64,000 nucleotides of DNA from Psammoneis japonica (taxonomy: Eukaryota), in contig QPGO01000154.1 of NCBI GenBank assembly GCA_008632985.1, positions 1 to 64,000 of the forward strand. Reading direction: 5' to 3'. Both the position numbers and the translations under genes were made by a program. The notes under the pieces were generated by a model that saw only the letters and a list, made by a program, of their open reading frames with translations, searched no databases and was not told the DNA's origin. Positions within the stretch are counted from its first letter, which is position 1. The number at the start of each line of letters is the position of its first letter. Shown here in pieces: positions 1-44,130 of the stretch.

Positions 1-59
1 GACTGTGTGTCAATCGGAAATTGGGCAGAATTTTAGACACGCAACATCACGATGACAAC

Positions 60-700
60 ACAAGAAGCAGACATGCCATGAAGACCAATCACCTCCTTCC
101 TGCAGAATGTGTTGCACACAATGCGTCTTCGATGTGTGTCACAAAAAACATGAGTGTTGTCAATTTTTGCTCCATTGTGTCTTGCTCAGAACTGGCAAAA
201 GCTCTTCTTGGCTGGTGTCACTGACAGTGTGTTGGACTTGGTGTCATTTGGCAAGTCTGCACAAGAGGTGACAGCAATTTTGTTGACCCAGCAGTCTGTC
301 AAAATCATGGATGCTGTGTCATTCATGGCTGCTCTTGGTGTCCTTGTTTGATGGACAGGAAAAGATCTCTTGGACCCAAGTTCATGCCACAACGCAGTGA
401 GCAACCCATGCACTCTGCTTGCTGCTGTGAGAATCCAATCTGTGAGGGCATTGGATGCTGTCATTTTGGCATGTTTTGTCTTCCTGTTGGCCAGATCTGG
501 GTGCATTGCTGCATGCCCCTTGGCACCCACACTGCCCACAACTGGCACAATGGCAAAGATGGATGACCCTGGATAAAAAATTGCTTGAGATGAAGAGAAA
601 GTCATGCACCCATTTCTCCTCCAAATTGCAATCCATAAAAGCATGTCCAAATGAAGTGAAAAACATCTTTGCATCTCACAAAAGAATGAGTGCTGTCAAT
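60..700 (-). mobile_element. Possible tyrosine-recombinase remnant of a DIRS/Ngaro-like retroelement
   Basis: Minus-strand 'ALTDWILTAASR...' and 'FCQF*ARHNGAKID' loosely resemble the 'LADWLILG' and 'RFQKNGDNG' stretches I recall from diatom YR elements. Highly degenerate. Confidence 0.3.
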
Positions 701-1268
701 GTCAGCTCTGCTGGGTCTTGTGCAGAACTGGCAAAAGCTCTTGGTGTCCTTGGTTTGTGTTGTGCATCCTTTTTTCTTGTGCAAGCTTGAGCAGGACAAT
801 GACACTTCCTTGCACCACAAGAAAGTCTGCTCATGTCTGCAACAGCTCACAATGCTTGTGACAGCAAAAGAGTCACATGGCGCTGGCAGCTGCTGTTGCT
901 GCACACAACAAACCAGTTCCCAAAACCCACAGATCAAACAAAGGATTTTTCAGATGTCCAAGCTTCTGCAGCTGTCGCACCTTCCACTGAAGCAGCATCA
1001 TCAACTGCCAGCTGGCAGCACATTTTTTCAATTGTTGCCTTTGCACCAAAATGTCTGCCTCATCTTAGAACAGAAATGAGTCCAGGAGGAAAAACAACAG
1101 GAGCTTTTCCACCCGGCCTGGACTGGACCCACAGCCAACAACATTGTGCACTTTGTGCAGATGAGCCTTCTTGCTGTGCTCTGATGCAAAATGCATTGCC
1201 AACATCTTGGCACAAACACCCAAAGGACCACACTCAGCAGATGACATGATTCATGACTCAAGACAATG

Positions 1269-4228
1269 CCCAAGAGTTGTGCCAACTTTTGTTGTTGCAA
1301 CAGTGCCCATCATTCTCATTGTCTTTGCCATGAATGAGTCAATGCAACAAGAGCTTGTTGGCAATCTGTGGCTGCACCAAGCAAGCACCAATCATGATTT
1401 GTTGCCACAAGCTGGCACCTTCCATCTCAAACACACCCACCTCATTGTCTGCAAAATGACTGCAATGCTGGTTTGCCGACAGCGCCCACTGCCATTGGAG
1501 CTGATCTTTTTTCTCCTTTGGCCACACTGCATGGATCACCAGGAGGATTGATGAAGGAGCACTTGTTGTTGTCATTGTTCTTTTTGCCATTGTCGCCATT
1601 GTTGTTGTTGTTGTTGTTGACCTCCTGGTGCACCAACACATTTGTCAGCATCCAATGTGGCAACATTTGTGCCATCTTGATCATGCCTTCCTTGTTCTCC
1701 TCCTCCTTGACACTGTGGTGAACATGAGGTTGGTGCAGATTGTTGAAACAACACTGGAGCAAGCCAGCTCACAGCCCCTTTCCATGCAACAAGGATGACA
1801 ACAACCCACTGATGGACGTTGCTTGATTTCTTCCATGGCTGCCACTGTTGCCACAATCATGATCAGAGTCTGCATTGCTTTCATGATTGCTGGGGCCAGT
1901 GTTGCTGCATTTTTGGTTCTTCATCTTGGCCTCTTGGGCTCAGCCTTCTTTTCAGCAATGGCAATGTGCTTGCAGCTGCTGTGACCACTGCACTGCTGCC
2001 ACTTTGACCACTCACCATGTTTGTTGTCATTGTCAGGTCCACAAAATGAAATGGCATCCTTCATCATTGTTGTTCCCAAGCAGGCAACAATGGAAAGAAG
2101 GGATGCTGAAAAGATGTGCCGCAGTTTGTTGAGGAGGGCCTTGATGCTGCACATGGGCTGGAACAAAAAAAGACAGATGAACAAAAGTCATCATCCAGTG
2201 GCATTCAAGGCAATTGAATGGCATGTCAAAAATGCCTGTGCAAGTCTGGTTTTGAACATTGGGGAGGGACACACAAGTGCTGCAACCCGGGCTGATTTGC
2301 TGCACTGCAATTGTCTCAATTGTCCATGCTGGGATTGGCTGTTGAAAGACAATGAATGAGTCGACAAAGTCTTGGAGCTGTGCAGCTGAAACTTAAATTT
2401 GAGCAACTCAGAAGACAAAAGAATTGCGCAAAGGATTGACCCTGCTTGTTCTGTTTGGAACAGATTCAGATTTGCCAGCTGGACAAAAGAGAAGTGGTTG
2501 CTCCCACTGTGGGCTCTCTGAACTGGCTCTCATCCACTGGCATTGTGTGGTTTTGTGGCTGATCATTCCAGCCACTGCTTTCTTGTTGAAAACTTTTTGT
2601 CCACTCTCACTGAACAATGTCAATAAAATGACATTCATGGTGCTCTTCAATGCTCAAACACCTGCGACTTGCATTGCAATGTGGATCACAAGGATGCAAT
2701 CAAGGCACGGAGTTAGCATCAAAGGGGGCATGCACTCCATGGGCAGCAATTGCTCCCGAAGCTCCAAGGTGTTGTGGACCCCAAGAGTTGTGTTGCCTTT
2801 CATCATGACAACAGTGCCCATCATTGTTGTCTTTGCTGTGAAAGAGTTGACACATCAAGAGCTTGTCAGCAATCTGTGGCTGTTCCAGCAAGTGAGCATC
2901 AACCACAATTTCTTGCCACAAGCTGGGCACACTCCATCTCGAACACCTCACAGTTTGCAAAATGACTGTGATGCTGGTTTGAAAATGGTGCTGAGTCTGC
3001 TTTTGCACCACATGGAGTGCAAGGAAGATTTAGCATGTTGTTGTCATTGTTGTTGTTGTTGTTGTTGTTGTTCTGTCCATGTCAGCATCCAAAGCAGCAA
3101 CAACAGTGCCATCTTGATGCCTTCCTTGCTCTTCCTCTTCTCAACTGTGGTGAACATGAGGTTGATGCAGATTGTTGAAACAACATTGGAGCAGCTCCAG
3201 CTTGTTGTCCCTCCCAAACAACAAGGATGATGACAACCCACTGAAAAACATTGCTTGATTTTTTGCATGGCTGCTGCTGCTGCCACAAGAGCTGTGATCT
3301 AAATCTGCATCCCTGCCATGACTGCTGTCATTGTTGTTGTTGCCAGGGCCAGCATTGCTGCATTTTCAGCCCTTTGTCTCAACCTTGGGCTCAGCCTCCT
3401 TTTTGGCAATGCCAATGCCCACAGAAGTGCCACAACCACTGCTGCTGCTGCTTTGGCCATGCTGCACTTGTTGTTGTCATCAGATCCATGAAATGAAACT
3501 GCATCCTTCATCATTGTTTGTCTTCAGAGAGATCACAAAATGAATGGCAAGCTTGTCCCAAAGCAGGCAACAATGAAAAAAAGGGATGCTGAAAAGATGC
3601 GCCACAGTTTCTTGAGGAGGGGGCTTGATGCCACACAGGGGGTGGGACAAAAGAAAAAAGACAGACAAACAAAAGTCATCATCCAGTGGCATTCAAGGCA
3701 ATTGGATGGCACAACAAAGAAGCCCACACAAGTCTGGTTTTGAGTGTTGGGGAGGGAGACACAAGCACTGCAACCTGGACTGATCTGCTGCCTCACAATT
3801 TGATGCTTGAATTGGCTGTTGAACAACAATGAACAAATCAACAGCGTTGGAGCCATGCATCCAAAACTTAAATTTGAGCAACTCAGAAAGCATGAGTGTT
3901 TGCACAAAGGATTGATCCTGCTTGTTTTGCTTGGAACAGAGTCAGATTTGCCAGCTGGACAAGAGAAGTGATTGCTCCCACTGTGGGGTCTCTGAGTTGG
4001 CTCTCATCCACTGGCATGTGGTTTTGTGAATGATCATTCACTGCTCTGTTGATAATTCCATGTCTGCTCTTGCCAAATGACGTCATCAAAAATGGTGGTT
4101 CATGGCACTCTTCAATGCTCAAACACCTCCTGCGACTTGTGTGGATCTCAAAGATGCAATGAAGGCATGGAGTTGGCATCAAAGGGGGCATGCTCCATGG
4201 GCAGCAATTGCTCCAAGGTGTTGTGGAC
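1269..4228. repeat. Head-to-tail tandem duplication, two ~1.5 kb copies (about 1269-2779 and 2780-4228)
   Basis: Both copies begin cccaagagttgtg and end ctccaaggtgttgtggac, and their internal segments are colinear (e.g. aaacttaaatttgagcaactcagaa at ~2389 and ~3864). Confidence 0.9.
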
Positions 4229-4229
4229 T

Positions 4230-5400
4230 GTGTGAGTGCCTCTCAGTGCAGAAGAATGGGGTGGGAGACACCACTCATGTTGGGCATCATTGTGTTGAGA
4301 AGCACGAGATTGGGTTTTGTCCCTCATGCCATGCGCAACACCACTGTCTCTTGCTTGAAGGATTGGCAGCATCTGTGTCTTGTGCAAGGGTCAAGGACCA
4401 GCAATGTGTGTGCCCCCCTGGAAAACTTCCTTTGTTGTCATCAGAAACGTGAAGACTGGATCTTCAAAGACTTGGCCGCAAAATGCATTTTCAAATGGTT
4501 TCAGAGGCTCTCTGCCAACAGTCTGGAAATTGAGAATTGCAAATGCTGAGTCACCAACGGAGCAGCGGGGTGGTGGAATCCGGCAAGCTCTGTTGGTGTG
4601 TCCATGCCAATGAAACCTGGACATTTGTTCACCCAGCTTTTTGCACTCCAACCCACTGTTGGCCATGGTCAACACACACTCAACATGCACATCCACCAAA
4701 GTGTTTGAGTGCAAATCTGGTTTTTGTTCTGCAAATCCAGCTTGGGTTGGATTTGGGATGAAAAGTCTTGTGCTCAGATGTGACACTCACGACAGAGTCA
4801 GTCAGCAGCAGTTTGAAAGACAACATGTCTTCACTTCGTCCACCACATGGGTTGTGCTGTCCCCACAACAAATTTGGCAATGCAAATTCCAGCAACTGCC
4901 GGATGCCATCTAGACCACTGTTCAGTTGATGAGGAAAGACCTTTTCTCCAGTGACAGAAATGACAAAAATTTCAAACAGCATCTGTGAAATGATTTTGTT
5001 GTTTTCATCACAAAAAGCTGTTTCTCTGCAGTTCTTTGACAGAGTGGGCATCAGGATTTGTGGTCAGAAGCACTCAAAATGATTGGAGAGAGACGGAACC
5101 CAGAAGAAGAGTTTGGTTGCCATGATCTGAATTCCTCTCTGGAGAAAAAGTTCATTGAGTGGAAATGTTCCAAGGCCTGGGAAGCTGTCTTGCCTTGCTC
5201 AGCAATGCATGTGACAAGTTTTTCAGCCATCCACATGAGAGGATGCATGTGGTCACTGACATGAGCATGGATGTTCTTTAGCAGCACAATGATCTGGACT
5301 TGATGATCCATGCCAGTGTGGTGGCCAAAGCAGCCAACAATCTCCTCAGTTTGCAGTGCCACATCTGAACTCACAAAGAGTTAACTTGTCTCAATTGAAC
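4230..5400 (-). mobile_element. Possible degenerate reverse-transcriptase fragment
   Basis: 'EIFVISVTGEKVFPHQLNSGLDGIRQLL' is weakly reminiscent of DIRS-type RT. No intact YxDD. Confidence 0.2.
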
Positions 5401-5439
5401 TTTTGAAAGTTGCCACTTGCTGATTTAAATGCTTGCACA

Positions 5440-8400
5440 CCTGCTCCACATCTGGTTGCACACAAATCCAAGATGCGTGCCAGCAAGACAAAATTTCTGT
5501 TGCTGTGGAAATTTGGACTTGTCTTGTGTTGTCAATCACTTGATGCAAGCACTGCATGCCGGTGTGCAGACAATCAAAGTTGCACATCAAACCAAGGCAC
5601 AATCTTGCATGGTGACACACAAGTTGACTCATCCAACACAATCTTGTCACCTGTCACATGTCGTTTTTACCATGGGGCTTGCCCTGCCCATCTCCATCTC
5701 ACTTGTTTTTGCAACATGAACAATGGCACCCTCCTTTGCTGTGGGAAATGGCTGTCCCCTCTTCAACACCACCTGAGAACTCATCTTCCCTGCAAACTCT
5801 CCTTTTCTCAAAGCATCCAAGCTGTTTTTTCCCATCAATCGGATGATGCTCATGGCAAACATTTGCAAATGGGAGAATCCAAAGAACCAGGGGACATTGC
5901 CACCTCTTCTGCCCTTGGCTCTTCTCCCATTGAATTTGTTGCAACAGGGCCCCACTCCAATGCTGGGCCAACTCCACAAGTTCACACACACGACTCAATC
6001 ACTGGCCATTGAGATCCAATTGTGCATTTCAACAGCACCATTCTGCCATCTGCTGATGTTGTTTCAGAGTGCCAGTTCCCAGCAGACAACAAAGAATTTG
6101 TTTCCAATCCATTTGATGAGGATGTGTTTCCTTTTGACACCAAGAGTGCTGCTGCTGCTGTTGTCAAATCAGGCTTTTTTGCTGCACTAGATCAAGTGGA
6201 GCATCTCTCCACTGACAAGGATCTTGTGGCACCCAAAGTTTGCAACAGCAAAACCATTTTTCCATGGTCCGCACATTGAATCTGGGTCACTCCAAGGGTG
6301 TCCCAATCAGTGCAACCAATGAACTTCTGAGAACTGCGCAAGAGGAATTCTTGAGTGGTGGGTTGTCCATCACCCAACAAATCGCCTCTTCTCACACTTT
6401 CATTTCAAAGCTCAAGTCAATGTTGCCCAGCGTTGTTGCTCCGGTGCTGAAGCAAGTCCCCCTTGAGTCAGAGTCCATTGTCAACCAATTCAAAAATGAC
6501 AGAGGCAGCAGTGCAAAATTCACTGTCATTTGTTCTGTGTTTGTCTTTGGTGGTGGCTCCGCAAAATGGTGAGGGATGGGAAGAGCTTGCCTTCCTGAAC
6601 TGGTCCAAGTGAAAGTGAAACTCTGCTGACATCTTGTTTGGTGATTCAATCAACAGTCCCTCTGCACAAGAACCATCAGAAGAACCGCCCATCCCCTCAG
6701 CAGATGCATGCTTTTCCCCACTGTCTGCAACGTGGACACACTTTCTTTTGTGATGCAGAGCTTTTCTCCTTGCATCTGCCTCTCTTTGTGTGGCCACCTG
6801 GGATGACAATTCCTCTGCCACCTCCCTCAATGGAGATGACAGACATTTGTCCCCATGCAAACCTGGGAGCAGCGATGCAGCGATCTTGGTCAAATGAGCA
6901 AAGCTTGGCCGGTTGGAAGTGTGCCGAGACATCCGTCCATGTCAAGAGTTCAGAATGGATGATTTGTGTCAGTGGGAGACAATCCAATGGAAGAGACCTT
7001 TTTGCAAATCAAGGCCCTCTTGCTGACATGCTGACCAGGTTGGAAATGCATGCATTGCTGAGAGATTTTGTTGTTTTTGTGATCCAGTCCTGTCGGAAGG
7101 GGAGGGAGATGAGATGCCAAGTGCAGAGCAGAACACAACAATGACATGGAACGTGAAAATGGACAATGTGGCAGCATGGAGCGGGTGCAACCCAGTGAGA
7201 AAGCTCAGTGGCACAGTTGTTGTGTTGCTTTGCGAGACATTGTGATTGCTGTTGCCATCACATGGACAGACAGTGCCACATGGGACCACAAGCCAAGTTA
7301 CAGCAGATGTCCCAAACAATGAAAAATGATCACAAATAAATGGGCAACCTGTTTTTGTGACAGCAAATTGAGCTAAATCACAAATCAGCAAAAATCAAAC
7401 AACATGATGAGGACAGAGAACATTGAAATTTTGTGCTCTGTTTCAAAAACACAAAAGACAGAAAGCTGCAGCAGTGCATGTTGTTCATTGCACAAAACAA
7501 AAGATGCACAAAAAATGCCTTGGTCATTTCATTGAGGATGCTGCATTTTTCCTGGGAGAGAATGCCTGGGCAATTGCCACATTTGCAAAATTTCGGCCCA
7601 TGCAGCTGCAACAACACAACAATTCTGAAAAAGTGGAGATGCAAATGACAGCAATGGAGACTGCTCAGTGCTTGCGTCGAATGTGCTCTGTTCCAATTGC
7701 CAACAGCGGGGCATGCTGGGCAGCCTGGAAAGCCTTGCAGAAATGGAAGGCACTGTGGAGTGCATTTATCTTGTCTCAACAGGGGAACTCTGTTGAAAAT
7801 GGATGAAGCAAACAAACAAACAAAGCAACACACAACCCCATGCTTTGCAAGAAGCAATTGAGTGCAATGGCACAATGAAAATGCAAGCATGTGACAACAG
7901 CAATCCCAGGTTCACTTTCATTCAGAGACACCGGACTGCCAAGCTCATGCGGCATTTGCACAGAGAGCACATTTCCATGTTCCAGTTGTTTGGTTTTTGC
8001 ATTGCAAGCTGGACAAAAGCAGGCCACATGTCAACTTTTGGAGCTTCAATTGTTGCACTGTGTTGGGATTTCTGGACAATCCAAGGTTTTGTGTTGGACC
8101 ATTTTTGGCAAGGTGGTTGAGCTTCAGACATGTCGATTGTGAGGAACACATGGACAAAGTCACTTTGATGCTGAGTTTGAGCCACTTAAATGTGGAGCAG
8201 TGCATCAGTGAGGGGAGACTGCTGCCTTGCGCGATTGTGGTGGCACGTGAATTGGGGGACAATGCTTGCAGATTCCCAAGAATTGAGTGTGCTCTGCCAC
8301 CTTGCAGACATGATCCATTCACAATCGGCGACAACACCATGTTGGACATGGTTCATCTGGAAGTGCACGACAGAAGAAGGGTCACCTGGCCTCATGCAGA

Positions 8401-9270
8401 CAATTGTTTTCCTCCAACAGTTGGTGGAGATGTGGGGCTTTGCAAAGGAGAAAATTGCTGGGATTGAGGGTGCACTGTGCAGGAGTCCACGCTGTCCAAG
8501 AGGGTTGCAACAGTGGATTGGATGCCAGTTGTGAGCACTTGTTCAAATTTTACAGGTGTTGGAAAGTTCCGGACATGACATTGAGGAAGGCAGAGGGGTG
8601 AGAGCAAGATGATGAGCAAGGGTCAAGACAAAAACACCAAACCCCAGCAAGCTCCAATTGCTGGAAAACCAAACCCCAGCAAGCTTTCATTGCTGTTGCG
8701 CCCTTGGCCAAACGATGCTCTGGATTGGTGGGCACAGAGGGATGGCCAAGAGCATGGGGGCCCAGATGGCAAAGCAAAGACAGGAAGTTCCAGTCGCCAG
8801 CCTCCCAAAAATGCAATGTGGAGTGTTTGGGCTGCAGCCCTTTTGGCAGCATGGCTGCAGCCCAAAAAATAAAATCAGCTTGTGATTTGAACAATCTGGC
8901 ATGCAATGAGTGGCAGCGCCATTGTTCTTCACACACATCATGCAACATAGAGTGGACGCACAATGTGAAGCTGCAAACGATGAAAACTGCCATTCAAACA
9001 AAATGCAAAATTCATCAATTGATGTTTGAAACTGAGCAATTTGAAAATTGTGAAAAATGTTGGGAACATCATCCGCATGGTTGTTGTGTTTGAATTTTCT
9101 TGTGATGCATGACAAAAAAAATTGCATCAGAACTGAGATTTCCAGCACGGTGTGCGAGAATTTTTAAATTAAAATCAAGAATTTTTTGGCATGATGGGCA
9201 AGAATGTCATGTGTGCGTTCAAACACGATGTCAGATTGTTGCCCTGCCAGATGCAATGGCAGTGATTTTA
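5440..9270 (+). mobile_element. Internally deleted copy of the composite element at 25500-37140 (Plavaka-like N-terminus, RNase H/YR remnant, subterminal region)
   Basis: Inverted homology: 5440-6500 with 37140-36290 (AALDQVEHLSTDKDLV vs AALDQVEHLSTNKDLV), 6510-9050 with 29770-27335 (GDNACRFPRIECALPP vs GDNTCRFPKIMCALPP), and 9050-9270 with 25700-25500. Confidence 0.7.
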
Positions 9271-11365
9271 TGATTCAATGTGTTTTTGAGCAGCGTGGTG
9301 AATGGCAAACACACTTCTGATTCAGACGTGTTCCAGCTCCAGGTGGGACCTCGTGCTGCTGAACTGTGACATCAATGGTTTTTTGGGTCACACCACATGT
9401 GGCGCACGCAGATGGCTGCATGTGACATGCTGCAAAATTCTTTCACACTCCCTGTTTTGCAAAGCCAAAGGCTTTCTATTTTCAACATTTGCAAGAGCAA
9501 AAATGCGCTGGGCACATTCTTCAATGTCTGCAGAACACACCCAGGCAAACTGTCAATGATGTGCTTCAAGTGTGAAGGAGGAGATGTGTTTGTTAAATTG
9601 CCTCTTTTTCTGTTGGTGATCATTTGCATTTTCATTGCTTGACAAATTTACTGTGGAGCTCGTGTGCAGAATTCTGCGAGCCAAATGTCGCACCGAGTCC
9701 CACCTGGGACTGGAGCCCATCTTCAACACAGTTTTGTGCCTTGTCCACCAAGACCACAGCCTCCTCCTTGCACTGCTCCAACTCCTCAACAAAGTTGACA
9801 CAGATTCTTGTTAAAATGTGTTCGAGTTCTTAAAGAAGCGCACATTCCTTCCTTCCCCCTCACAAGTTGACCGCCAAGCTGGCGCAGCAGCCAGCGCAGT
9901 TTTTGTTCCAGTGCCTCAGCAAGCACTGACATGAGAACTGAACAATGAGGATTCACCTTCTGAGTGATCTTGTCAATGAGTTCCTGATGTTGCACCATGA
10001 ACTGCCTGTGACCGACATCCGAGGATTCAAAAGATTCCTGCTGATGCATCGACTGCGCCTGAGCATCATGTTTTGCTTGCAAATCCATCGTCATGTTGCC
10101 AACAAAGGGTGCTTTGTTTGGTTGCATTTGAATGCCACCATCTTGCTTGCATTTGAGCATCAGCTGCAACACAGTCCTCTCCCTTGATGAATGAACATCA
10201 AGACAGGTGGGTCCTGACACCAGCTCTTCATGAGCTCCGCGAGCCATCATGCTCTGGCGAGTCGACGCATGCACACACACTGATGACACTGCATCACACG
10301 ATGGCACAGCTGAGATTGATGTGCTCTGTGAAAATTTCAATGTCGTGTCAACAGGAATCATTCGAAAATGTCGTGTGGGTCACAATTGATGTTTTGCATG
10401 AGTGAAAACACAAAATCGTGCAGAAATGCACACAAAGTCATGCGAGAGAGTGATTGGAGCTAACAACTTTTCGGGAACTGAACGGAAATGCTGTCTGATT
10501 GATGGTGTTGGCCTTCACTGTGTGAATCAAAATGCCATCAATCAGACGGCATTTCAATTGATTTCCCGAGAAGTTGACATTCACACATGGATGGATGGAC
10601 AGACTGATGACAATTGTTTTCAGTGCTCTCCTGCACAATTTCCACGTGATGACTCTCAGGACCCGAATGATTCCTGTTGCTGACAAGATGTTTCTATTTT
10701 GTTGCAGGCACTCTGCAACAGAGAGCAGTTGTTCTCTTTGTGCTTGGTTCAGATTGCAATGGGAATCTTTCGAAAATGACCCGTGACGTAAAAAGCACAA
10801 AACAGCTGTGGACACCTGCAGAATCTACACGTTTTTGTGCTGAAACTGTTATGTTCACACAATTTGTGCAAAAATAGACTTGACTGTTATCGGGTCAGGT
10901 GTATTTTTGCAAATGCATTGAAGAAAATACACCTGATCAGAAAACAGTCAAGTCCATTTTTCGCAAAGTTAAAATTCACTAAGGACAGACAGACAGACTT
11001 TTCAATAATTATCTTGGTACTGTTCTACACATTTCTACGTAAATGACTCTACAGCGCGAAAGATTGCTATTGAGATGTTTCTGCTGCAAAAAGTCTGTCC
11101 ATCGTGAGCAAGCGACAACTCATCAATCGATATTTTCAAGAACTTATAATATTTATGCTTATTAATTGCCGGAAATTCCCACCCAAATTTGTATTCATAT
11201 CTTAATTTGTCAAATTGATACTCCTACCAATGCTGATTTACGTGGCCATCTAGTACTAATGTACGCAACGGCGATCACGCACATGTATTATGTGATATTA
11301 CATCACGATGGTTTCTTAATGAACGGAGAACTGAAAAAATGTTGACCACGTAGGTTCCTACGTGC

Positions 11366-11664
11366 TACTACGAATTGCAAGACAATTGCGCGATTCACGT
11401 GCCCGAAGGGTGATTGTTGAAATTCGAGCTTCGCGCACGTAGAGCCTGTAGAAAATGTACCAGCCAGCCCGAAGCTCCGATTTTCGTAGATCACGTAGGA
11501 GAGTACCACAAGGTCATTTGATGAAATGACTGGGACCAAAATGAAAATTTTGATACCACATCATACGTAGAATTGACATCTGCGCGAAGGGAGAATGTTT
11601 CTTCGGGCAACGATATTCCACCTTCGGGCACGTGAATCGCGCAATTGTCTTGCAATTTGTAGTA
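11366..11664. mobile_element. MITE-like element, 299 bp, 44-bp terminal inverted repeats
   Basis: tactacgaattgcaagacaattgcgcgattcacgtgcccgaagg (11366-11409) is the reverse complement of 11621-11664 with 1 mismatch. The outermost TA at each end could be a TA target-site duplication. Confidence 0.8.
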
Positions 11665-15415: not shown

Positions 15416-15418
<3 letters not shown>

Positions 15419-33170: not shown

Positions 33171-33199
33171 GGACAAGCAATGTTTTAAACAATTTGTCA

Positions 33200-36100
33200 C
33201 TCTTTGCACACACTCCTGCCCCCAGAGCACAAATCGCCATCTAAAAAGAGTTCCAGCCACTCTTCCTTCATGTCCACGACAAACAATGTCTTTTTGTCCA
33301 ACAACTCGCGATCCAACACAGTGCCTGACAAAGACAAATTGGCAGCTTCTTGACTGTCCCCTGAATTTTGTTTCTGAGCTTTCTTTCCTTTCTTGCATTT
33401 TTTTCCTTTCTTTCCATTGTCCGTCAGCACCATCTTTGGCAAGACCACACTGAACCCACCTCCCACAAGCGTGTTTTTCTGAGAACCGCAAAAGGTGCAC
33501 TTGGGTGTCATGCCCTCCATGTGCCTTTTCCTCCTCACTTTGGGTTGAGCATGTTCTTCCAAATGCAACAACCTCCTGTCTGTTGTCACTTTTAAAACAC
33601 ACCCATGCAGTGGCATTGGGATTTAGGTGTCTGTCCCATGATTGTCGTTTCTGTGTACAACCTGAGCAAAGTCATGCCATCTCCCAGCCTTGCAACAATT
33701 CAGATGGGCAGCATGGAATTGCAAGTTGTGTTCCACCTTTAGATTCAACTCAGAGTGCACCACAACGTGCCTCTGCATTACACTCAACTTCTGTTGTCTG
33801 CACAAAAACTCATCAACATCCTCCTCCAAGTGAGTGCTTCTGTCTCTTTTCAACTCTGTCACTGGTGCATTGCAGTGGACATTCAAGGTGGTTGAGCACA
33901 AACAGTGCATGAACCAAGTCATTGTGTGATTTTAAACTTGGTTGCAAATGATTGGATTTGCCACTGTTGTGGCCAATCAAATTGTTTGCTTGCTCCAACA
34001 GAGTCTGCTTGCACAGTTGGCTTGCAAGCTGATGAGTGAACTCCTCTTTGCCAGACTGCCAGTGGTGGCATCCCATCCAGAGAAGATGCCCAGGCAATGA
34101 AGAGCAGCAATCAAGTGCAGCAGATCATGACTGATCTGGCTCTGCAGCTTGAACATTAGAAGAACAAGGTGGCATTTGAGATTGACTTGATTGGTGTGTG
34201 TGTGTGTGTGCAAAGAAAACCACAGTTGCAAAAGGAGTGGAACAATGACAATTTGTTGAGCAACAGAAACAGGTGTTCCACATCATCACAGTGCACCAAA
34301 CAACTGGTGGGCTGGAGATCCATGCTGTTCAATCAATTGTGGAATGGAGGAGGCAAGTCTTTTTCAATTCCAGAGCAAAGAAACCATTGGTTGTGGTCAG
34401 TTGACTGTGTGTGAAGGGTCGGACATTGGTCTGTGCAGTGTCTTGCGCTTTCATTGACAGAAGAGTCATTTTTGTCAGGAGTGAAGAGTTGTTGGTCAAG
34501 ATTGACATTTCTTGTTTGCATCACATAATGTTGTGGCACAACTGGGCTTGAGTGGTGGTCATCTGCAAAATGTGAGGACACCTGCAAAATGTGAAGACAC
34601 ATGTGCAACAGGCCATGATGACAACATTGATTTTCCAGGAAATCATTGTGAGTGGGGTCAGTGGGATTGCATTCTTTGTTTGCATGGGGCTTGTTCACAG
34701 CTGCAGCAGCTCCATCTGTGGAGGCCACCAAGGGAGATTCTTCATTGGTGCAGTGCTCTTTGTTGTCCTCCTCAGGAGTTTGTTGGCATTTGTTGGATTC
34801 ACAGGCAGACTCGTCATCCTCCAATGCAGCCTCATTGGGATTGTTGGCTTCTTGTTCCACTTCTTTGCATGTGCAACCATCGTCTTTGTCTTTGCAATTG
34901 CGGTCATCTTCTGGAGGACCTTCATTGAACTGGGAGGCTTGCTTTTTCTTTGTCTTGTCAAAATCAGGATGACATCAAAGATGGAGATGCTGCACCCCTC
35001 CTTGGTCTGACCCATCAGTGCAAGTGCAAAAAGCTTGCCCATCTTTTGGTCACAGGTCAAACCAGACAAGGTGCAAAAACCACTGCACAGGCCAGGACAA
35101 CCAGTGGAAAGTTTGATCTCTGTGCAGGCCTGCACCACTGAGATCCAAATGTGCGGTTGGCCAAATTGTTTGGTCGCCTTTGGCAGAGTCAGGCAAATCA
35201 TTGACTGTCGATGGAAAGCATTTGAGGGACTGTGCCACCTTGGAATGTGTGCATTGGGTGGGGGAGGCAAAACCAAACACCCCCTGATGGTTGTCTCCCA
35301 CGTGCAGAGGAAAGAAATTGTTGACGGTGTGTTGACAGAACACCTCATGTGGTGTGGTGGTGCAAATGTTTGTGCACCAAACAACAGCACTGCATGCCAT
35401 CAAACACATTGATTTGGCTTTCAACTTCAACATCACAATGTGAATTGTTGACTTGATGCACAAATGCCACAGACTGTTGGTGGAACCCAGTGGTTTTCCA
35501 AGAGTGGCTGCCGTTAGATGACCCATCACTTCCTGAGAAAAATGCTTGCAACAGTGCAGCAGTTCATTGCTGCATGTCCAGGATGCATGGCAAGCATGAC
35601 TGATGCAACAGGTGTTTTTGCAACCTGAAACATGGCCGGTGACTTTTGCTGCATCACACCGGCATTGCCCATCAAAGTGATGCTGTGAACAATTGTGCAC
35701 TTGAAACAGCACTGAGCTCCCAGTCAGACAAGGCATGTTGGCAATTCTTGCACTGCAATTGCAAATGCGAGAATGATGGATGCAGTGCAGTGACAGTTTC
35801 TGACATTTGTCAAGCATTCACGCCAAAAACTTGCCAAAAACAGCATTCTCAGTTTTGCAGCCAGTGAATTTTGGGATGAAGCCTGGAGGGTGCCATGCTT
35901 CAAAATGCCTGTGTGCACCTGCCTTGATGAGAGTCCACAGAGAAAAGAAATGGCTCCATCAAATGGGGTGCAACCTGTCTTTCCTGGTTTTGTTGGTGTG
36001 ACACACAACAAAGACAGGAAAGGATCCAGGGAGAGTGGGACCACAGAATCCACACAAACAGTTGCTGCAAGTTTCTCCATCCTTCATCATTTCTGCATCA

Positions 36101-37140
36101 TCACAAAGTTGCCAGTCTTCATTCTTGCCCAGCGTGGGTTCACGGGAAAGGACCTGAGACCAGCATGACACGGGAGGAATGTCAAGATTGGAAAGGTCTG
36201 GAAAAAGAGGATCATCAAACAAGTCCTGCAGCTGAAGAGAAAGGTTGCACACAGGATTCTGGGAGACAGCTTTGCAGTTTGTTGTTTTTGAATTGGTTGA
36301 CAATGGACACAGACTCAAGGGGACTCTCTTCAACACCAGAGTGATGATGCTGGGCAACATTGACTCAAGCTTTGAGATGAAAATTCAAGAAGAGGGGACT
36401 TGGTGGTTGGCAAACAACCCGCCACTCAAGAACTCCTCTTGTGCTGTTCCAAGAATTTGTCAGTTGCGCTGATTGGGACACCCTTGGAGCAACACAGACT
36501 CAACATGTGAGCCACAGAGATGATCTTGCTGTTGTGTGCTTTGGGAACAACAAGATCCTTGTTGGTGGAAAGGTGCTCAACTTGATCCAGCGCAGCAAAA
36601 GAACCTGATTTGACAACAGTGGCAGCACCCTGGTTGACAGAAGGAGATGCAGCACCATCAAACAAATCAGAAACAAAATCTTTGTTGTGAGGGTGCTGGC
36701 ATTCTGAAACATCATTGGTGGCTGGCACAACGGCAGTGGTGTGAGAAGATCATGGCTCTTGCACTGGGGTGCCTGCATGAGTGGATCTTAGATGTGAGGA
36801 TTGTGTTGTGCATGAACTTTTGGAGTGGACCCCATGTTGGAGTGAGACCCCACTGCAACAAATTAGATGGGGAGGGGGGGGAAGGTGGAAGAGGGAGTTT
36901 CATTGCCCAGTTCTTTGGATTCTCCCATTGGCGGAAGTTCACATGATTGTCCTTGTGAATGCTCTGCAAAAAGGAGTTCTGAGGTGATGCAGAAGACCAG
37001 TTGGAAGGAAACATTTGCCACACACGGACAATCATTTGCCACAGCAAAGGAAGGCACCAAACTGGCTGGTCACAACAACAGAAATTTTGTCATGCAAGCA
37101 CGCATCTTGGATTTGTGTGCAACCAGACGTTGCCCATTGT
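33200..37140 (-). mobile_element. Degenerate Plavaka-like DNA transposase
   Basis: Ordered remnants LQDLFDDPLF..LSNLDI (~36200), GDNHQGVFG...PMHTFQGG (~35270), WKI..HGLLH (~34620) and FHAAHLNCCKAGRWHDFAQV (~33690), resembling the recalled 'HPNY...WYDW' motif. Confidence 0.55.
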
Positions 37141-37501
37141 GAAAAATGATTCTCTTCCTTTCTTGGAGGTGAGGGCTGCACTTGTCACAAGATTCTCCAA
37201 GCTGGTGCATGTTGACACTTCTTGTGGCCACACCTTGTTGTCAAGAGTCTTTGAGTTCTCATCATCTGCCACTTCTGCAGTTTCAGCAGAAGCAGCAAAA
37301 GCAGCACATGGCTCCAAACCGCATCTTTTGGCAATGTGCTCCAAACTCAAATGTCTCAAAATGTTCTTGAAGTGTTGATGTGTGACAAGGATTCCTGAAA
37401 ACTGTTGAGCAACTCAACCAAGTCATGAGCCGGGTTGCAAGAAGAAATCTGACAGTCTTGGTTTGCACACCATCAACACAGAAAAAATCAGACATCTCAA
37501 G

Positions 37502-38192
37502 CCATGCTGCTGTGAAAAAAAGCACAGGATTGCCAGCAACCAGTGGAAAATGTTGATTTGCTGCACATTTGTCAGACAAGCAAGTCATCAAAAGTTTGTT
37601 GCAGAAGATGGAAAGAGACCACATGTGCTCAAGCCTCCAATCATTGTGAAAATTCAGGAGCTCATCTCCAGCATGTTCAGAGTCCAGAAGAAAACATGCC
37701 CTTCCACACTTGTCCATGCCAGCATGAGTGAGCCAAGAAGAGAGCTTGCACTCTGTGGTTGCAAGTCCTTGCTGGAAATGCAATGGTGCAAGACCTCCAG
37801 GCCATCATTTGAATGAACAGAATCAAGAGCAACCTGCTCAATGCCAAAGATGGCGTGAATCTGGCAGTCAGAGAATTTTTTTACCCAGGCGCTGCATTCT
37901 GAAAGGCAAAAAAACACTCAATGCAAGCCAGCCCCAGCTCTTGAGGATGGCAAGACCACCATGATCCCAGAGGAGCTCATCACAGCTCCACATCAAGTCA
38001 CACTTTGTTTGGAAAGTCTGGAGGTGAGCAGCTTGCCACTCATCACCACCACGACCTCCTGCAATCTCTCCACTGCTGTGCTGCACATGACATCTCAAAG
38101 ATTTGACTCCAGACACTCACAAGGAAGCTCCAGAGAAGGAGCGTGGCACATCTGCAACCAGGGCAATTCCAAGAAGTTTCCACAGCAGGTTT
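37502..38192 (+). repeat. Left arm of a ~0.68 kb inverted repeat (partner 42870-43547)
   Basis: Long identical stretches with the reverse complement of 42870-43547, e.g. both translate to VLKPPIIVKIQELISSMFRVQKKTCPSTLVHASMSEPRR. Confidence 0.92.
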
Positions 38193-38452
38193 GGATCAGG
38201 TGACGTGAGATAGATGCGATGCCGCTTAGATTCAGATTCAAAGCCCAAGGCATTTTTGCTACATCGTTTTCACTGTGTGACTCATCTTTGCTGCCGCACG
38301 AGCTGGGCAACAATGAATGCATCACGTTCCAATGCAGGTCCGATCAAGCGTCGCTCCTCACAAAAGAAAAGATTCCAAATCTATCTCGTGGGAGAGCGAT
38401 CTTGTGCGAAAGCGCGTGGACTTTGGCGCAAGAAAAATCGACGTGTGCTTGT

Positions 38453-40847
38453 CTAACACAAAGACGTTCGAATTCCCTTCGAAAGAATCTTCACTGCAGC
38501 AGGAGGGACAAAGCCGTCGGCAATGGAAATGCGCCCAGCCTCAATCTCAGAGTGCAGTTTGACAATGTTGGACTCAATGGAATTGTTGAACACAAACCTC
38601 TTCACTTGCACCGCTTTCGTTTGTCCAAGGCGGTGGATGCGACCTGCCGCCTGGACTTCCGCAGCGGGGTCGATGCACGGCTCGAGAAGACACACAATCG
38701 ATGCCGCAGTCAACGTGACCAGACGGCAGAACAAATGTGTGAGGTCAGGGTCGACATGGCAAAAGACAAGTCTCGAGCGAAGACACCACTACTTACTTCC
38801 AACGTTGCCAGCCTTCAGCGTAATGACGAAGACTGCTGGTGTAGAATCACTTTCATCTTGGAACTTCCGGATTGCCTTGTCTCGGGCAGGGCCACTTGTA
38901 GATCCGGTAAACTGGCACACATCCAGACCTTGGTTCTTGAGTGCTTCGATCACTGCCGAGTGCTGCCGAGTGTACTGCGTAAACACAACAGCACGGAGCT
39001 TGGGTTGAGAACGGCGCACAAGCTGCAGATCGTTCAGAAGAGCCTTGGTCTTGGTGACGGCGTGGCCAGCGAACGTCATGCGAAACAGAAAGCACTGCTC
39101 AAGAGTAAATATTTTGGATCCTTCTAGTTCGTAACCACGAATGATATCCGCGTGCTTGTTGGCTTTTCCAAGCATGTCCCGTTCGAGCGGTGACATGTCC
39201 ACGCACAAGGTGGTCGAGGTGGACGCAGGGAGAACCAAAGCCTCGGATTCTCGGATGCGTTGCTTTTTCGTGTGATGAATCATGACACGCTTCAACTGTT
39301 CAACAAGAGCGTCGAATCTCTCCTTCCCATTGGGTAAGGCCGATTCAAAATCCCGAATCAACCTCAAAAGCACCTCATCGTAGCTTCCGGAAAAGAGGAG
39401 CTGAGATGCAATCTCGCGAATGGAGGAAGTGAACGGAGTCGCTGTCACACACCACCTGATTTCTGAACAAATCTTTCCGGCCTCATGCTGCTTTGCTGAC
39501 GATCTGTTTGTTTCAAATAAATGGCTCTTGTCGGCAACAACCCGGTGGAACTCGAAGTTGTCGGTGATGCTTGGTTTCCATGTAAAGGTGGAAGTGGAAA
39601 TGATGACATCTAAATCAACAAGCTGGCGTGGATCGAATTTCTCTGGTTTCCGTGGCACCTCGCAGCACGGAGATTAGGAGCATGCTTCTTGCATTCGTTG
39701 AGCCACTGGCCAACCAGCGAAACGGATGTTAACACCACAGCAGTCTTTGCTGGAACCCTCTCCCACGTCCTGATCATTTCCCTCCATTCCCTCCATTTCT
39801 TTTTGTCATAGTCTGGGTCTCCACCATCGCGAAAATGACTCAATCGAGAGAGCTCCTTGGACTTGTGGTCAAGTCGACGAGGTGGCTTCTCCCAGTCTTG
39901 CAGTTTCTCTTCAACTGGGGACAAAGTCGGCAGTCTTTTCAGTGCCATGGGATTGGAGGCAACAAGAGCAAGAACAACGGCGGACTTGCCCATTCCAACC
40001 TCATCGCACAGGAACCCCCCCTTGGCCTTGCCGCCGGCAGAGATCTCGCGATCTTCCACGTCCAGCATGAATGCCAGGCTCTGACGTTGGCAGTGGCGAA
40101 GGCTCGTGGAAAAGAGGTTCGCAGGAGGAACCTTTTCAACAGGGCATGCCTGAGTCACGGCATCCAGCAACTTACGAATCGAGAAGTCACCTGCAACGGT
40201 GCAGTTGACGGTCCTGGCACAGCAGCCTCAGCTTGCTGTGGGGGCACCAGCATTTCTCCTCGTTTCTTCACGCTTGCGTCTCCACTGATCATCACTGTAC
40301 TTGGCATGGCAGTGCTCCTTCCATGAGGCACAAGTAGAGGCCAAAATGTCACACACGTAGCAAAAACAGTTTGCGCAGTGCTTTGAGGGATCGACGTTGT
40401 GAGGGTGGCAATGCAGTTCTCACGCGAGTGGGGAAAGTCAACAAGAGCAAAATGACCTGTCGTTCCAACCACAGCGACCTCTTCATCGTCCTTCTTCTCC
40501 TCGTTGTCAGTGGAGAACAACTGGGCCGTGGCAGACTTGACTCGAGAAGCAGAGACCTCACGAACATCGTCGTTGTTGTTTCCAGACGAAACTTCTTCTG
40601 TGTCTTCTTCGCTCGTCGAAGCACTCATGGTCGACAATGGAGGATTGGCACTCGCCACTGCTTGTTCTCCGGGTGTCGTGACTGGAAGCATCACCTCCTC
40701 TCTGTCAGGACAACCCACCGATGCGCTGCCAAGTGAGTTCTCGGTCTTGATTCGCTTTGAAGTCACTTTCAGTGTCGCCGCGGCTGGCCTCTTTCCGTCT
40801 GCGTCATCGTCATCTGAAGACACCAGATCAATCACGTTCGTCGACAT
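38453..40847 (-). pseudogene. SNF2/RAD5-like helicase with N-terminal Cys/His zinc-binding domain, disabled
   Basis: Motifs GGFLCDEVGMGKS, VVADKSH, RWCVTATP, VVFTQY and QAAGRIHRLGQ; N-terminal FPHSRENC...HCANCFCYVCD...W..HC. In-frame TGA at 40230-40228, frameshifts at ~40405 and ~39640, and a broken splice acceptor at 38721-38719. Confidence 0.85.
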
Positions 40848-40990
40848 AGTCCACTGCATGGATGTGGCTGTGAGATTTCGAGCACAGTGCGCATTCAATG
40901 ATGAGAAGCAACGAAACTTGGAGCCGTCAGCCTCATCGACATCGTGAACTGCCGAGACGCCGCATCCCGCATCAGCATGGCATGCCGGTG

Positions 40991-41243
40991 TTCATCGTGA
41001 GACCCCACAAATGCGGAGGGACCCTCCTGCAGAGCTCTGTGCAAATTTTTGTATGTGGCACTGAAACATGTAGCCTGCATGCGCAAAACTGGTGCAGTTT
41101 CTACGACAAAAATCCGAAAAAACGCCCAGTTTGCGAGATGGCTCTGGTGCAAAACCCACGTGAACAGTCCCCATACATTCACGTAGAACTCCACACATTT
41201 CCGGGTTGCAGGTCCCTCCGCATTTGTGGGGTCCCACGATGAA
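40991..41243. mobile_element. MITE-like element, 253 bp, 33-bp terminal inverted repeats
   Basis: ttcatcgtgagaccccacaaatgcggagggacc (40991-41023) vs reverse complement of 41211-41243, 1 mismatch. Flanked by TG on both sides. Confidence 0.75.
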
Positions 41244-41399
41244 TGCATGGCATGCTCAATCTTTTTTTGGCGCGCACCCGCGCCCTCTCCATCGTTTCGA
41301 GAACGGCCCATTTGGACAGAGAGACCTGTTCAGCAAAGCCAGAAAAAGAAAAGTGAAAGCTGGCATTTTCCGGTCCAGCCAGCATCTAAGAAAAAGGAG

Positions 41400-44130
41400 C
41401 AATGCCGAGAACAGCTTTTTGGACACATGAGCAACACCAATGACAAAACAACTGGGTTGCTTGAAAAGGTTGCCAGCGACAGATCATTCTTTCCCCCCTT
41501 TTTTTTTTGTCAAAAGCAAGTCATGTGAACAGGCTGTTGGCTGAGCACCTTCAAAAGTGCAAGGTCTCTTGATGCTTTAGCAAGACACAGCTTTCCTCAC
41601 TCTGGGGCCCTGCATGCACCTGACAGCTGCATGCAAACACCCTGCAGCACACGCCACACAGCAAATCAGCACAGGAGGGTTTCATTTTAGAGACAAGATC
41701 CTGAGAGGAAACCATTGTTCTCACACTTCTTTCAGAAACAAGCCTGGGAGCATGCTGTGCATGTGGAGAGCAACATTTTCAAACCTTTGCAATGGCAGGC
41801 CACCAGCACATGGCACAATCTCAGGGGCACCAACAATGTGGGTCCATCCACCTGCCACAAGCTGGAAATTTTATGACTGCAGTGCTAGATGAGCATTGCT
41901 TGGCAAGTTGGGTGATCACTTTCATTTCAGTTCAGACCAACTCTTGTGGGCCAATTGAAGTCAAATTGTGCCCTCTTTTGTTGCAGGGTGTTCTTGCCTC
42001 TGATCCCAGAGTCAATGCCTTTTTTTTTTTGTGTTTTGTTGTTTCTTCAGCAGCCATCATTGTTGTTGTTTGTGGTTGTCGAACATGCAGAGCACCAAAA
42101 GCTGAGGCAGCAATTTGAGAGGTGAGATCTGTTCCCCTTGTGAACAAGAACAGACATGTGGAAAGCACCATGGGTTCTTGGCTGTTGTTTGAAGCAATGT
42201 GGTGGGTGCTTCTCACCATTTCAATGGAGTGTCAGTGTCAGTGCTCAACTGTGCCAACCATGTGGCACAGTGTTGCACCAAGAATGTCACAACCAACTGT
42301 GCCATGCTGCAAGAGAAAATGGCCCAAGTGCAAAAAAAAAAGGGGTGGCTGGGAGCCACCACCCACAAAACTGGAGCTGGTGCACATGCTGCTTGGGCTG
42401 TTGTTCCTTGCCATGTCATCACTGTTGAGCCCAGTGTGGAGGAACAGGGCCTGTGGCAGTGACAAAAGAGGAGCACATGGTGCCTTGGCTTTGACGCCAC
42501 TCTGTCACCTCTGTGCTCCCAAAAGCTGTCCTCCAACCAGGAAAGTTTTGACTGACCCAGTCAGAAGATTGCACTCAGATGACACACAGAGATGGGACAT
42601 GCAACAGTTTCAAACAACATTGACGTGGTGTCTGCTGCTGTTGCAATTGCTGCTGAGTTTCCTTGCATGCAGAGCATTGCTGGTGAGCACCCAAGCCACT
42701 GGTTTTGACAAGTGCTCCTGGAGTGGGAGCTGATGGCAAGGATTGGTGCAAGCACGCTCTTTTCTTTTTTCAACTTTGATGTTTCTTTCAGCTTTTCTGG
42801 CACATGCTCTTGAGCATTGGAGCAGCTCATCTTGGCATTGTGGCAGGCCTCAAAACTCACTGTCACTTTAAATCTGCTGTGGAAACTTCTTGGAATTGCC
42901 CTGGTTGCAGATGTGCCATGCTTGTGAGTGTCTGGAGTCAAATCTTTGAGATGTCATGTGCAGCCCAGCAGTGGAGAGATTGCAGGAGGTTGTGGTGGAA
43001 ATGAGTGGCAAGCTGCTCTCCTCCAGACTTTCCAAACAAAGTGTGACTTGATGTGGAGCTGTGGTGAGCTCCTCTGGGATCTTGGTGGTTCTTGCCATCG
43101 TGTCCTCAAGAGCTGGGGCTTGCATCAAGTGGTTTTTTGCCTTTCAGACTGCCTGCACCTGGTTAAAAACTTTCTCTGATTGCCAGATTCACACCATCTT
43201 TGGCATTGAGCAGGTTGCTCTTGGTTCTGTTCATTCAAATGACAGCCTGGAGGTCTTGCACCATTGCATCTCTAGCAAGGACTTGAGCGCAGAGTGCAAG
43301 GCTCTTCTTGGCTCACTCATGCTGGCATGGACAAGTGTGGAAGGGCATGTTTTCTTCTGGACTCTGAACATGCTGGAGATGAGCTCCTGAATTTTCACAA
43401 TGATTGGAGGCTTGAGCACATGATGTGGTCTCTTTCCATCTCTTCTGCAACAAACTTTTGATGACTTGCTTGTCTGGCAAATGTGCAGCAAAATCATCAT
43501 CCTTCTGCTGGTTGCTGGCAATGTGCTTTTTCTTCACAGCAGCATGGAAAAATCTTGACCATGAGATCACATGTTGTCAGCTGGCTGTAGGTGGCACTTG
43601 TGTGCGGGCTCCTGATGGAGCTAAGACCTGAGTGAGGTGGACACTGTTTCCAAAAAGTTTGGCACCAAGTGTGCTCAAGTGTTCCCCACTTTTGTTGTCA
43701 AAGGCATGTTCCTCCTGCACAAGAGAGCCCAGCAAGGCATTCAGTGAGGTGTTGCTTTTCTGTCAGCGAGTGCAAGTGATCCAAGCAAGTCAGGTTGGAA
43801 GGAGCTGGTGAAGCAGACACATTTTCTAAAGGCAACCCAGCACATCACCATTGCTCTGCTGGCTAGAGAGCATGTTGTCATTGAGCAGCATGTGGGTGCT
43901 GCCTTCAAGTTCACACAAATTGCAAAAGCCATGCTGGTGCAGTGACAACACTTGGAAAGGGTGTCATTGCACCCACCAGTGCCTTCAAGCAGCAGAAGCT
44001 CAACCCAAGAGCTCTGCCAAAACAGAGATCATCACAGAATGTGCTCTGTGATTAGCTTCAAAGTTTGTGGGCCACCAGGAGGCACATTTGTTGTGAAGTG
44101 CAAGGAGGATGATGCTTCTACTGCCAGTGG
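41400..44130. other. CpG- and TpA-depleted block (block 3)
   Basis: Same signature. TA and CG resume at about 44130-44200. Confidence 0.88.
42870..43547 (-). repeat. Right arm of the inverted repeat (partner 37502-38192)
   Basis: See left arm. Confidence 0.92.

Follow-up and report, generated by a model that had tools for sequence, protein, structure and literature searches.

To our knowledge, cytosine is the only base at which repeats are known to erode in a context-specific way, through CpG decay and repeat-induced point mutation (RIP). In ascomycete fungi, RIP changes C to T mainly at CpA, creates TpA, leaves the DNA A+T-rich and proceeds in bursts along one strand. Adenine is the target of ADAR and of fungal messenger RNA (mRNA) editing, which act on RNA and favour a purine after the edited A, and the bacterial tRNA deaminase (ADAT/TadA) naturally acts on an A preceded by U and followed by C. 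Among modified bases, 5-hydroxymethyluracil of dinoflagellates has been reported to be enriched at TpA, and base J occurs in kinetoplastids; we know of neither in diatoms, of no TpA erosion attributed to them and of no reported preference for a purine before the T. The depletion of CTAG in enterobacteria is ascribed to very-short-patch repair. Here we describe a 64-kb window of the Psammoneis japonica genome (positions 1 to 64,000 of contig QPGO01000154.1, assembly GCA_008632985.1), the sole DNA under all our counts, in which three blocks of old, repeat-derived DNA of a diatom-like alga have lost nearly all TA as well as most CG dinucleotides.

The signature of this loss, its direction, its motif, its restriction to domains and its order relative to CG loss can be observed in the window itself. 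Expressed as observed over base-frequency expectation (o/e), TA and CG fall to 0.05 (37 occurrences) and 0.21 (125) in block 1, to 0.05 (48) and 0.17 (128) in block 2, and to 0.07 (13) and 0.07 (11) in block 3 (Table 1). These counts reproduce the depletion that a preliminary description of this DNA had reported for the same three intervals, including its 2 TA and 6 CG in positions 1–600, where base frequencies predict 42 and 33. TG and CA are raised to 1.7–1.95 across the three blocks, with 1,289 TG (1.89) and 1,206 CA (1.80) in block 1. In 1-kb bins, the blocks range over 0.01–0.14 for TA, 0.04–0.58 for CG and 1.6–2.2 for TG and CA, and the remaining window over 0.4–0.9 for TA and 0.75–1.3 for CG. 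Because 200 mononucleotide shuffles of block 1 gave 775 ± 21 TA and 590 ± 19 CG, its depletion did not arise by chance. G+C content is equal in blocks and normal DNA (0.472 and 0.477). Neighbouring DNA had also been described as rich in both dinucleotides, which is true of 10851–24599 (TA 0.63, CG 0.99) and 44131–64000 (TA 0.53, CG 0.97) but not of the gap between blocks 2 and 3, a TA-poor, CG-normal island (Table 1).

The letters of the blocks are also present in a public run, X1, whose contigs were built from exact 31-letter words. One contig of 1,786 letters over 415–2209 differs from the window at 4 letters and another of 1,785 letters over 3675–5459 at 7, that is, 4–7 differences per 1.8 kb. 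Contig depth over the blocks is ~60 (54–68), equal to the depth over neighbouring single-copy genes. Since the X1 contigs carry the same letters, the assembly or polishing slip for which the preliminary description had allowed is ruled out. X1 provides read-level support for the block letters; it may share the assembly's sample and so is no independent replicate.

TA loss depends strongly on the flanking bases. With R for purine and Y for pyrimidine, TA density in the blocks relative to normal DNA is 0.006 for RTAY (2 versus 387), 0.068 for RTAR, 0.049 for YTAY and 0.343 for YTAR (60 versus 214), a 57-fold contrast between the extremes (Fisher p = 5e-22) that lies far beyond what composition could explain. 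A model in which the two strands are hit independently, with a hazard of 2.56 at TAY and 0.53 at TAR, predicts 0.045 for the mixed classes, and the survival of TTAA (0.51) and CTAG (0.20) predicts 0.32 for TTAG and CTAA, observed at 0.35 and 0.33. TAA is the best-protected context in the blocks, and a pyrimidine after the A makes TA loss about five times faster. The products follow suit, with TG enriched 2.05-fold before C, 1.95-fold before T, 1.44-fold before G and 1.22-fold before A. This effect of the following (+1) base is restricted to TA: A/G divergence outside TA is 10.4% versus 10.2%, and AA is not depleted in the blocks (o/e of 1.24 versus 1.12 in normal DNA). The multiplicative flank pattern, the products and the TA-only effect therefore point to a single-base change at 5'-T-A-Y. 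As read from these letter counts, TA loss follows the rule A>G at 5'-TAY, equivalent to T>C at RTA, on each strand independently, and the lesion may sit on either strand. Generic late-replication effects on deoxynucleoside triphosphates were considered and rejected, as there is no +1 effect outside TA.

Comparison of repeat copies within the blocks captures the change at individual sites. One copy reads TG where the other reads CA at 42 of 302 aligned pyrimidine–purine (YR) sites in a tandem pair and at 21 of 114, 23 of 173 and 11 of 59 in three further comparisons (14–20%), and adjacent transition pairs exceed expectation (54 against 19.8, 29 against 14.0, 34 against 16.1 and 14 against 8.8). 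Both features arise where an ancestral CG or TA was converted independently in each copy. Outside YR steps the copies diverge by 18% (transitions 9.7%, transversions 8.4%). When we converted every CG and TA in silico in the window's normal DNA, the full dinucleotide profile of the blocks was reproduced and TG/CA rose to 1.88–1.91, against 1.83 observed, with G+C unchanged; with the context rule applied, GC came to 1.17 (observed 1.22) and AT to 0.85 (observed 0.86). CG loss alone falls short of a TG/CA of 1.83, so A>G/T>C changes are required.

The same conversions segregate at the locus. The window and X1 differ at 400 places, 40 of them listed, and the 30 listed differences within block 1 comprise 16 of CG versus TG/CA, 7 of TA versus TG/CA and 7 others; 1 of the 10 listed in adjoining genes is of the CG/TA-versus-TG/CA kind. 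Conversion happened in place and still shows as variation. The repeat at 9324–9385 has a relative in a contig from the tiny run X3, whose 30-letter overhang at 9385 retains CG and TA at sites that read CA in the window; six X1 contigs overhang at the same position with a consensus that retains CG, with TA already gone. The choice between TG and CA at discordant sites shows no strand runs (runs tests, z = 0.77, -1.56, 2.16 and -0.3), though these sites may be mostly CG-derived. The asymmetry between YTGY and RCAR tracks local base composition, and products of A>G and of T>C are both found in every counting window, interspersed and balanced. The preliminary reading is upheld in that TA became TG/CA through A>G after T, which the opposite strand shows as T>C before A, and in that CG>TG/CA affected these very repeat-derived domains. 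The alternative raised with it, that intact source elements were already free of TA, is contradicted by limited evidence, namely the X3 overhang and the TA content of SNF2 relatives (o/e of 0.43–0.82; see below).

TA loss is separable from CG loss and precedes it, never lagging behind. We scored 319 windows of 400 bases: both dinucleotides are low in 120, TA is low and CG normal in 13, and CG is low and TA normal in none; 11 of the 13 lie in two places, the block edge at 10.0–10.6 kb and the island at 38.2–41.0 kb. The two losses also differ in their flanks. CG survival is 0.30–0.36 in GCGC, CCGG and CCGC versus 0.09–0.10 in TCGA, ACGA and TCGG, and is thus best in G+C-rich flanks, as for methylated-CpG deamination and unlike TA. 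On both grounds, the proposal of a second process distinct from CpG decay stands. The loss is specific to CpG and gives TpG/CpA (CG o/e of 0.07–0.21, TG/CA doubled), and the CG half behaves like methylation-type decay. Biased gene conversion towards G+C was rejected as a candidate, because CG>TG/CA runs the opposite way.

The island between blocks 2 and 3 represents an intermediate stage of conversion. It holds an intronless SNF2-family pseudogene whose pieces at 39613–40227, 38792–39673 and 38456–38788 abut exactly in 17 relatives and lie here in different frames, with at least two frameshifts plus an in-frame stop at 40228–40230. The 17 matches of this family (E down to 5e-61) are apparently restricted to diatom-like sources, and the best are diatom proteins at ~43% identity, Thalassiosira profunda and Cylindrotheca closterium being named. 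The island's TA o/e of 0.20 compares with 0.44–0.63 in nine other open reading frames (ORFs) of the window and 0.43–0.82 in two relatives, both short flankless contigs from a metagenome scan with P0001. At columns conserved in the 17 relatives the pseudogene retains 214 of 266 residues, and both of two conserved family tyrosines read Cys. Its 30 single-transition changes include TA>TG/CA in 6 cases and CG>CA in 5, and in the reverse direction CA>TA, CA>CG and TG>CG in one case each. Upstream of the SNF2 domain lies a 63-residue Cys/His-rich stretch (40231–40419, minus strand), where relatives list PF27679, a family outside the Pfam copy that we searched.

Elements nested in the converted DNA form a rough age series. 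The miniature inverted-repeat transposable element (MITE)-like insertion in the island is the least converted (5 TA, o/e of 0.33; 12 CG, 0.74), the pseudogene and a hairpin element in block 1 have lost TA only, and the old repeats have lost both. The hairpin has 0 TA and 4 CG, and one X1 contig bridges 10461 to 10590 directly, with the hairpin absent. A second MITE-like element, just beyond block 1, is unconverted, with normal numbers of TA (14) and CG (22). At its position 11600, 13 X1 contigs sum to a depth of ~8500, and a single X1 contig runs straight from 11367 to 11670, with 8 other letters, and looks like an empty site; this element is apparently a MITE that is present in many copies and moved recently. 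Since it is apparently multi-copy and normal, repetition alone is probably insufficient for conversion.

Table 1. Coordinates of the converted blocks, of elements within and beside them, and of neighbouring introns
Feature	Position	Strand	Details
Block 1, repeat-derived DNA nearly without TA and CG	1–10850		Runs off the window start
Block 2, repeat-derived DNA nearly without TA and CG	24600–38200		TA o/e 0.05, CG 0.17; sharp edges
Block 3, DNA nearly without TA and CG	41400–44130		Contains right arm (42867–43547) of inverted repeat
SNF2-family pseudogene island, TA-poor, CG-normal	38201–41399	-	TA o/e 0.20, CG 0.89; Pfam SNF2-rel_dom, Helicase_C
MITE-like element, 253 bases, nested in island	40991–41243		33-base inverted ends, 97% complementary
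MITE-like element, 299 bases, beyond block 1	11366–11664		44-base inverted ends, 98% complementary
Two tandem copies of ~1.5-kb unit (1269–2779, 2780–4228), block 1	1269–4228	+	72% identical; 88–90% purine/pyrimidine-coded
Collinear inverted copy of block 2 25551–37130	5448–9193	+	Six blastn and eight purine/pyrimidine-coded segments, order reversed
Extra ~6.5 kb in block 2, missing from inverted copy in block 1	29797–36277		Gap between matching segments
Inverted repeat of 0.69 kb, left arm, without TA and CG	37502–38195	+	Partner 42867–43547; 89%, 92% purine/pyrimidine-coded
Hairpin element, 113 bases, in block 1, TA lost, CG kept	10464–10576		55-base arms, 78% complementary
Intron skipped by run X2, aminotransferase gene	13518–13606
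Intron skipped by run X2, unnamed gene	16547–16638
Intron skipped by run X2, CCT-motif gene	18997–19088

Copies within the blocks are 69–72% identical in four letters and 84–92% identical once coded as purine/pyrimidine. The extra ~6.5 kb of block 2 is probably a nested insertion and is as depleted as its surroundings (1-kb bins, TA 0.01–0.11, CG 0.09–0.22). The arms of the 0.69-kb inverted repeat read TG versus CA at just 3 of 148 YR sites and make the same choice at 138, so this pair was copied after conversion. The 60-base segment 9324–9385 is very abundant in X1, with a bin depth of ~35000 versus ~60 for single-copy DNA, and also matches one contig of X3. Long ORFs in every frame of the blocks are expected by chance, because TAA and TAG are absent. 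A Pfam search of the 26 block ORFs of at least 150 amino acids gave nothing above threshold (DUF2871, at 17.7 bits and E 0.0046, fell short of the 27.4-bit cut-off), and 133 of the 170 ORFs of 75–149 amino acids, the remaining 37 being mostly the shortest ones, gave no match at E ≤ 0.001. These 159 ORFs contain no reverse-transcriptase remnant detectable by Pfam, three block ORFs have no relatives in large protein libraries, neither kind of search named a transposon class, and Rfam gave no match. Low-complexity TG repeats were rejected as the cause, since there are just four short arrays.

Block borders are sharp, the transition taking place inside ~200 bases, and the right border of block 1 falls at ~10800–10850. 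A 95-base palindrome at 10867–10961 (arms 84–89% complementary) has normal TA, and block 1 stops no more than ~20 bases from it. At the left border of block 2, ~250 bases (24400–24650) are TA-poor (2 per 200 bases) and CG-normal (10 per 200); here, either a younger insert was added or the TA process spilled a short way into the flank. Inside the blocks, purine/pyrimidine-coded sequence carries a period-3 signal at 2701–3600, 31501–32400 and 34201–35400, with a signal-to-noise of 8–10 that equals that of the window's real genes. These regions hint at coding relics; the first overlaps a TGT microsatellite, and no homologue was found for any of the three. Surviving CGs show a weak distance excess at 160–200 and 360–380 bases (z ~3.3–3.5, 30 bins), which resembles a nucleosome repeat and is too weak for a claim. 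Genes beside the blocks carry short GT..AG introns. Run X2 is recorded as 'DNA?', yet its contigs skip stretches of 87–90 bases with GT..AG ends (CT..AC when read on the opposite strand), as RNA would. X2 covers block 1 hardly at all, and we did not count this missing cover as silence; that the blocks are probably silenced is our assumption.

We propose, at roughly even odds (about 50%), that two separate context-specific transition processes rewrote old, probably silenced repeat DNA, and that the TA half is likely due to a lesion made by an enzyme and limited to these domains. One process turns CpG into TpG/CpA and behaves like methylated-CpG decay. The other changes A to G at 5'-T-A-Y-3', on each strand independently, within the same sharply bounded domains and ahead of CpG loss. 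Its cause might take either of two forms, deamination or modification of the adenine in TpA, or a mutagenic modification of the thymine in TpA that mispairs with G, and either would parallel the erosion of CpG by 5-methylcytosine (5mC). An enzyme is our preferred cause, given the very high specificity of the process and a rate above that of CpG decay. A steady elevation of rate is enough, and bursts are unnecessary because the copies are old. Defence and a by-product of a chromatin mark are both possible roles; that repetition targets the process, that it defends the genome and that any enzyme is involved are what we infer. More tentatively, this lineage or diatoms in general might have an activity dedicated to modifying or deaminating DNA bases, with 5'-TAY as its recognition site and newly silenced or repeated DNA as its target, that acts before CpG decay sets in. 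Such an activity, if real, would be a functional counterpart of RIP with opposite chemistry (A:T>G:C, composition-neutral), and might give chromatin a second heritable mark, at TpA, that parallels 5mC at CpG.

Several points weigh against this proposal. All the evidence comes from one 64-kb window, and the cause is deduced from sequence. X1 is possibly the assembly's own data, on an unrecorded platform. The 23 allelic CG/TA-versus-TG/CA differences are unpolarised, and the outgroup data on direction are thin (2 tyrosines, 6 codons). R..Y flanks surround 19 of 91 discordant sites (21%), where CG-only conversion after duplication predicts 21% and conversion of TA as well predicts ~28%, which the observed share does not clearly depart from; TA may have been lost before or after the duplications, and the oldest repeats may stem from TA-poor source copies. 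For the blocks' ancestral composition we took the window's genes and spacers, which may differ from the original repeats. In the island, moreover, TA survival by flank (RR 18, YR 7, YY 6, RY 6) departs from the clean pattern of the blocks.

TA loss may instead need no dedicated enzyme. Copying or repair errors might go unmasked in these domains, either because mismatch repair is excluded and the replicative polymerase's T:G mispair hot spot at TpA becomes fixed, or because frequent deamination of 5mC triggers long-patch repair in which an error-prone polymerase mutates nearby A:T pairs; the latter resembles the second phase of antibody hypermutation, in which polymerase eta favours A after A or T. 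Change site by site without strand runs and the independence of the strands suit this account, TA loss without CG loss fits faithful repair of CpG lesions with collateral patch errors, and mismatch-repair-deficient bacteria have A:T>G:C hot spots set by the base after the A. We consider it unlikely nonetheless. Specificity is extreme, AA being undepleted in the blocks (1.24 versus 1.12 outside), the +1 base has no effect on A/G divergence outside TA, error-prone polymerases make many other errors, and repair-deficient spectra are dominated by transitions, whereas transitions and transversions outside YR steps stand at 9.7% and 8.4%. In a related account, a T:G glycosylase or nuclease recruited to the domains would resolve T:G at TpA to C:G and so turn replication errors into T>C. 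T>C at RTA with a rate set by the immediate neighbours, a gradual course and change on both strands would follow, and such repair would concentrate in domains of heavy CpG decay. Repair of 5mC deamination should, however, act at TpG and protect CpG, yet CpG was lost; the TpA context would have no evident reason and its enzyme is only hypothetical, which makes biased repair improbable.

Three further explanations were considered. If RNA underwent A-to-I editing at U-A and was then reverse transcribed and reinserted, copies would arrive poor in TA and normal in CG, and their CG would decay later in place. That order matches ours, as do the intronless, frameshifted, TA-poor and CG-normal SNF2 copy, the X1 consensus overhang at 9385 with CG and not TA, and discordant sites compatible with CG-only conversion after duplication. 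Yet TA is involved in 7 of the 30 listed allelic differences at the same locus, sense-strand editing should yield one kind of product where A>G and T>C are balanced in every counting window, and the hairpin element with its inverted arms, likely of DNA type, is TA-free too. Known editing enzymes prefer a purine after the edited A, and the 159 searched block ORFs hold no reverse-transcriptase remnant; we judge this route quite improbable. Blocks free of TA and CG from the start, being foreign, selected or amplified from a depleted source with no ongoing TA process, would account for the inverted-repeat pair copied after conversion (3 of 148 sites discordant) and would fit the flank data on the older duplications, which allow TA loss to have come first. 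Such an origin is very improbable given that unrelated sequences share the TA loss (the SNF2 pseudogene with TA-normal relatives, the hairpin and several repeat families), that remaining TA and CG are polymorphic, that the X3 overhang from a related copy has CG and TA, and that a flank rule of multiplicative form has the look of a mutational hazard and not of a composition. Finally, a long-read basecaller or polisher might misread modified bases at CpG and TpA as TG/CA, and domain-wide modification could in principle give systematic miscalls, the platforms of both the assembly and X1 being unrecorded. This is hardly credible in view of the TG/CA letters in X1 contigs at single-copy depth, the agreement of the inverted-repeat arms at 138 of 148 sites, and the frameshifts and Tyr-to-Cys changes of the pseudogene, which are ordinary decay.

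An A:T>G:C process that acts at TpA and is restricted to domains would add a new source of mutation bias, with a clean three-base motif and a pace faster than CpG decay. It would point to hitherto unknown DNA adenine or thymine chemistry in major marine primary producers, and could be a new way of inactivating mobile DNA with base composition unchanged. Should the cause be a DNA adenine deaminase that is naturally specific for TAY, it would be of interest for base editing. For annotation, the consequences are practical: standard repeat and gene annotation misreads such blocks because they have long spurious ORFs in all six frames, no recognisable transposon proteins and poor four-letter alignment, and purine/pyrimidine coding recovers the homology. 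A search of full-text literature, with subscription journals and supplements outside its scope, returned no account of repeats losing TA and CG together, nor of A>G in DNA that is specific to TpA. TA loss with a three-letter rule matched no described mutation process that we found; an earlier description elsewhere is possible.

Among known systems, the depletion of CTAG in enterobacteria shares with this locus the loss of a TA-containing word through a flank-set T>C bias, and parallels the biased-repair account above. It differs in being bacterial, genome-wide and specific to a tetranucleotide, whereas CTAG survives fairly well here (0.20). 5-Hydroxymethyluracil and base J are modifications at position 5 of a pyrimidine that lie on repeats, the former in a palindromic pyrimidine–purine step like CpG, and the oxidised form of 5-hydroxymethyluracil can mispair with G and give T>C, mirroring 5mC at CpG; our literature search returned no paper linking either base to diatoms. 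Like the process here, A-to-I editing by ADAR, ADAT or TadA makes A>G and strongly prefers a T (U) in front of the target; at this locus, too, the loss of A needs a preceding T, with TA lost and AA not depleted, and the bacterial tRNA site fits TAY. In contrast to ADAR and fungal editing, a pyrimidine after the A is favoured about fivefold (hazard of 2.56 versus 0.53), and the change is at the DNA level, in place and on both strands, not on the sense strand only.

Fungal RIP is closer in form, with transitions only, a dinucleotide context, sharp-edged repeat-derived domains, ruined trapped genes and mutation that apparently precedes methylation-type decay. The chemistry is opposite: here TpA is destroyed by A>G/T>C (o/e of 0.05–0.07), G+C is unchanged and strand runs are lacking. 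RIP is triggered by duplications above a threshold length; the blocks here contain repeats, and the apparently multi-copy 299-base MITE-like element outside them is unmutated. With no strand runs in the TG/CA choice and with old copies as well, the RIP-like hypermutation suggested in the preliminary description is not borne out. Diatoms carry RID-related DNMT4 genes of unknown function, found in 31 of 60 diatom species, and transposon methylation in Phaeodactylum is maintained by DNMT5a; the parts of that paper available to us report no mutational signature (PMC9998398). Decay of methylated CpG in silenced transposons, as in vertebrates and in DNMT5-bearing fungi and algae, resembles the CG half closely, in the change of CG to TG/CA, the random strand at each site and the slower loss in G+C-rich flanks. 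It is silent on TpA, whereas here TA loss is both more complete than CG loss and earlier.

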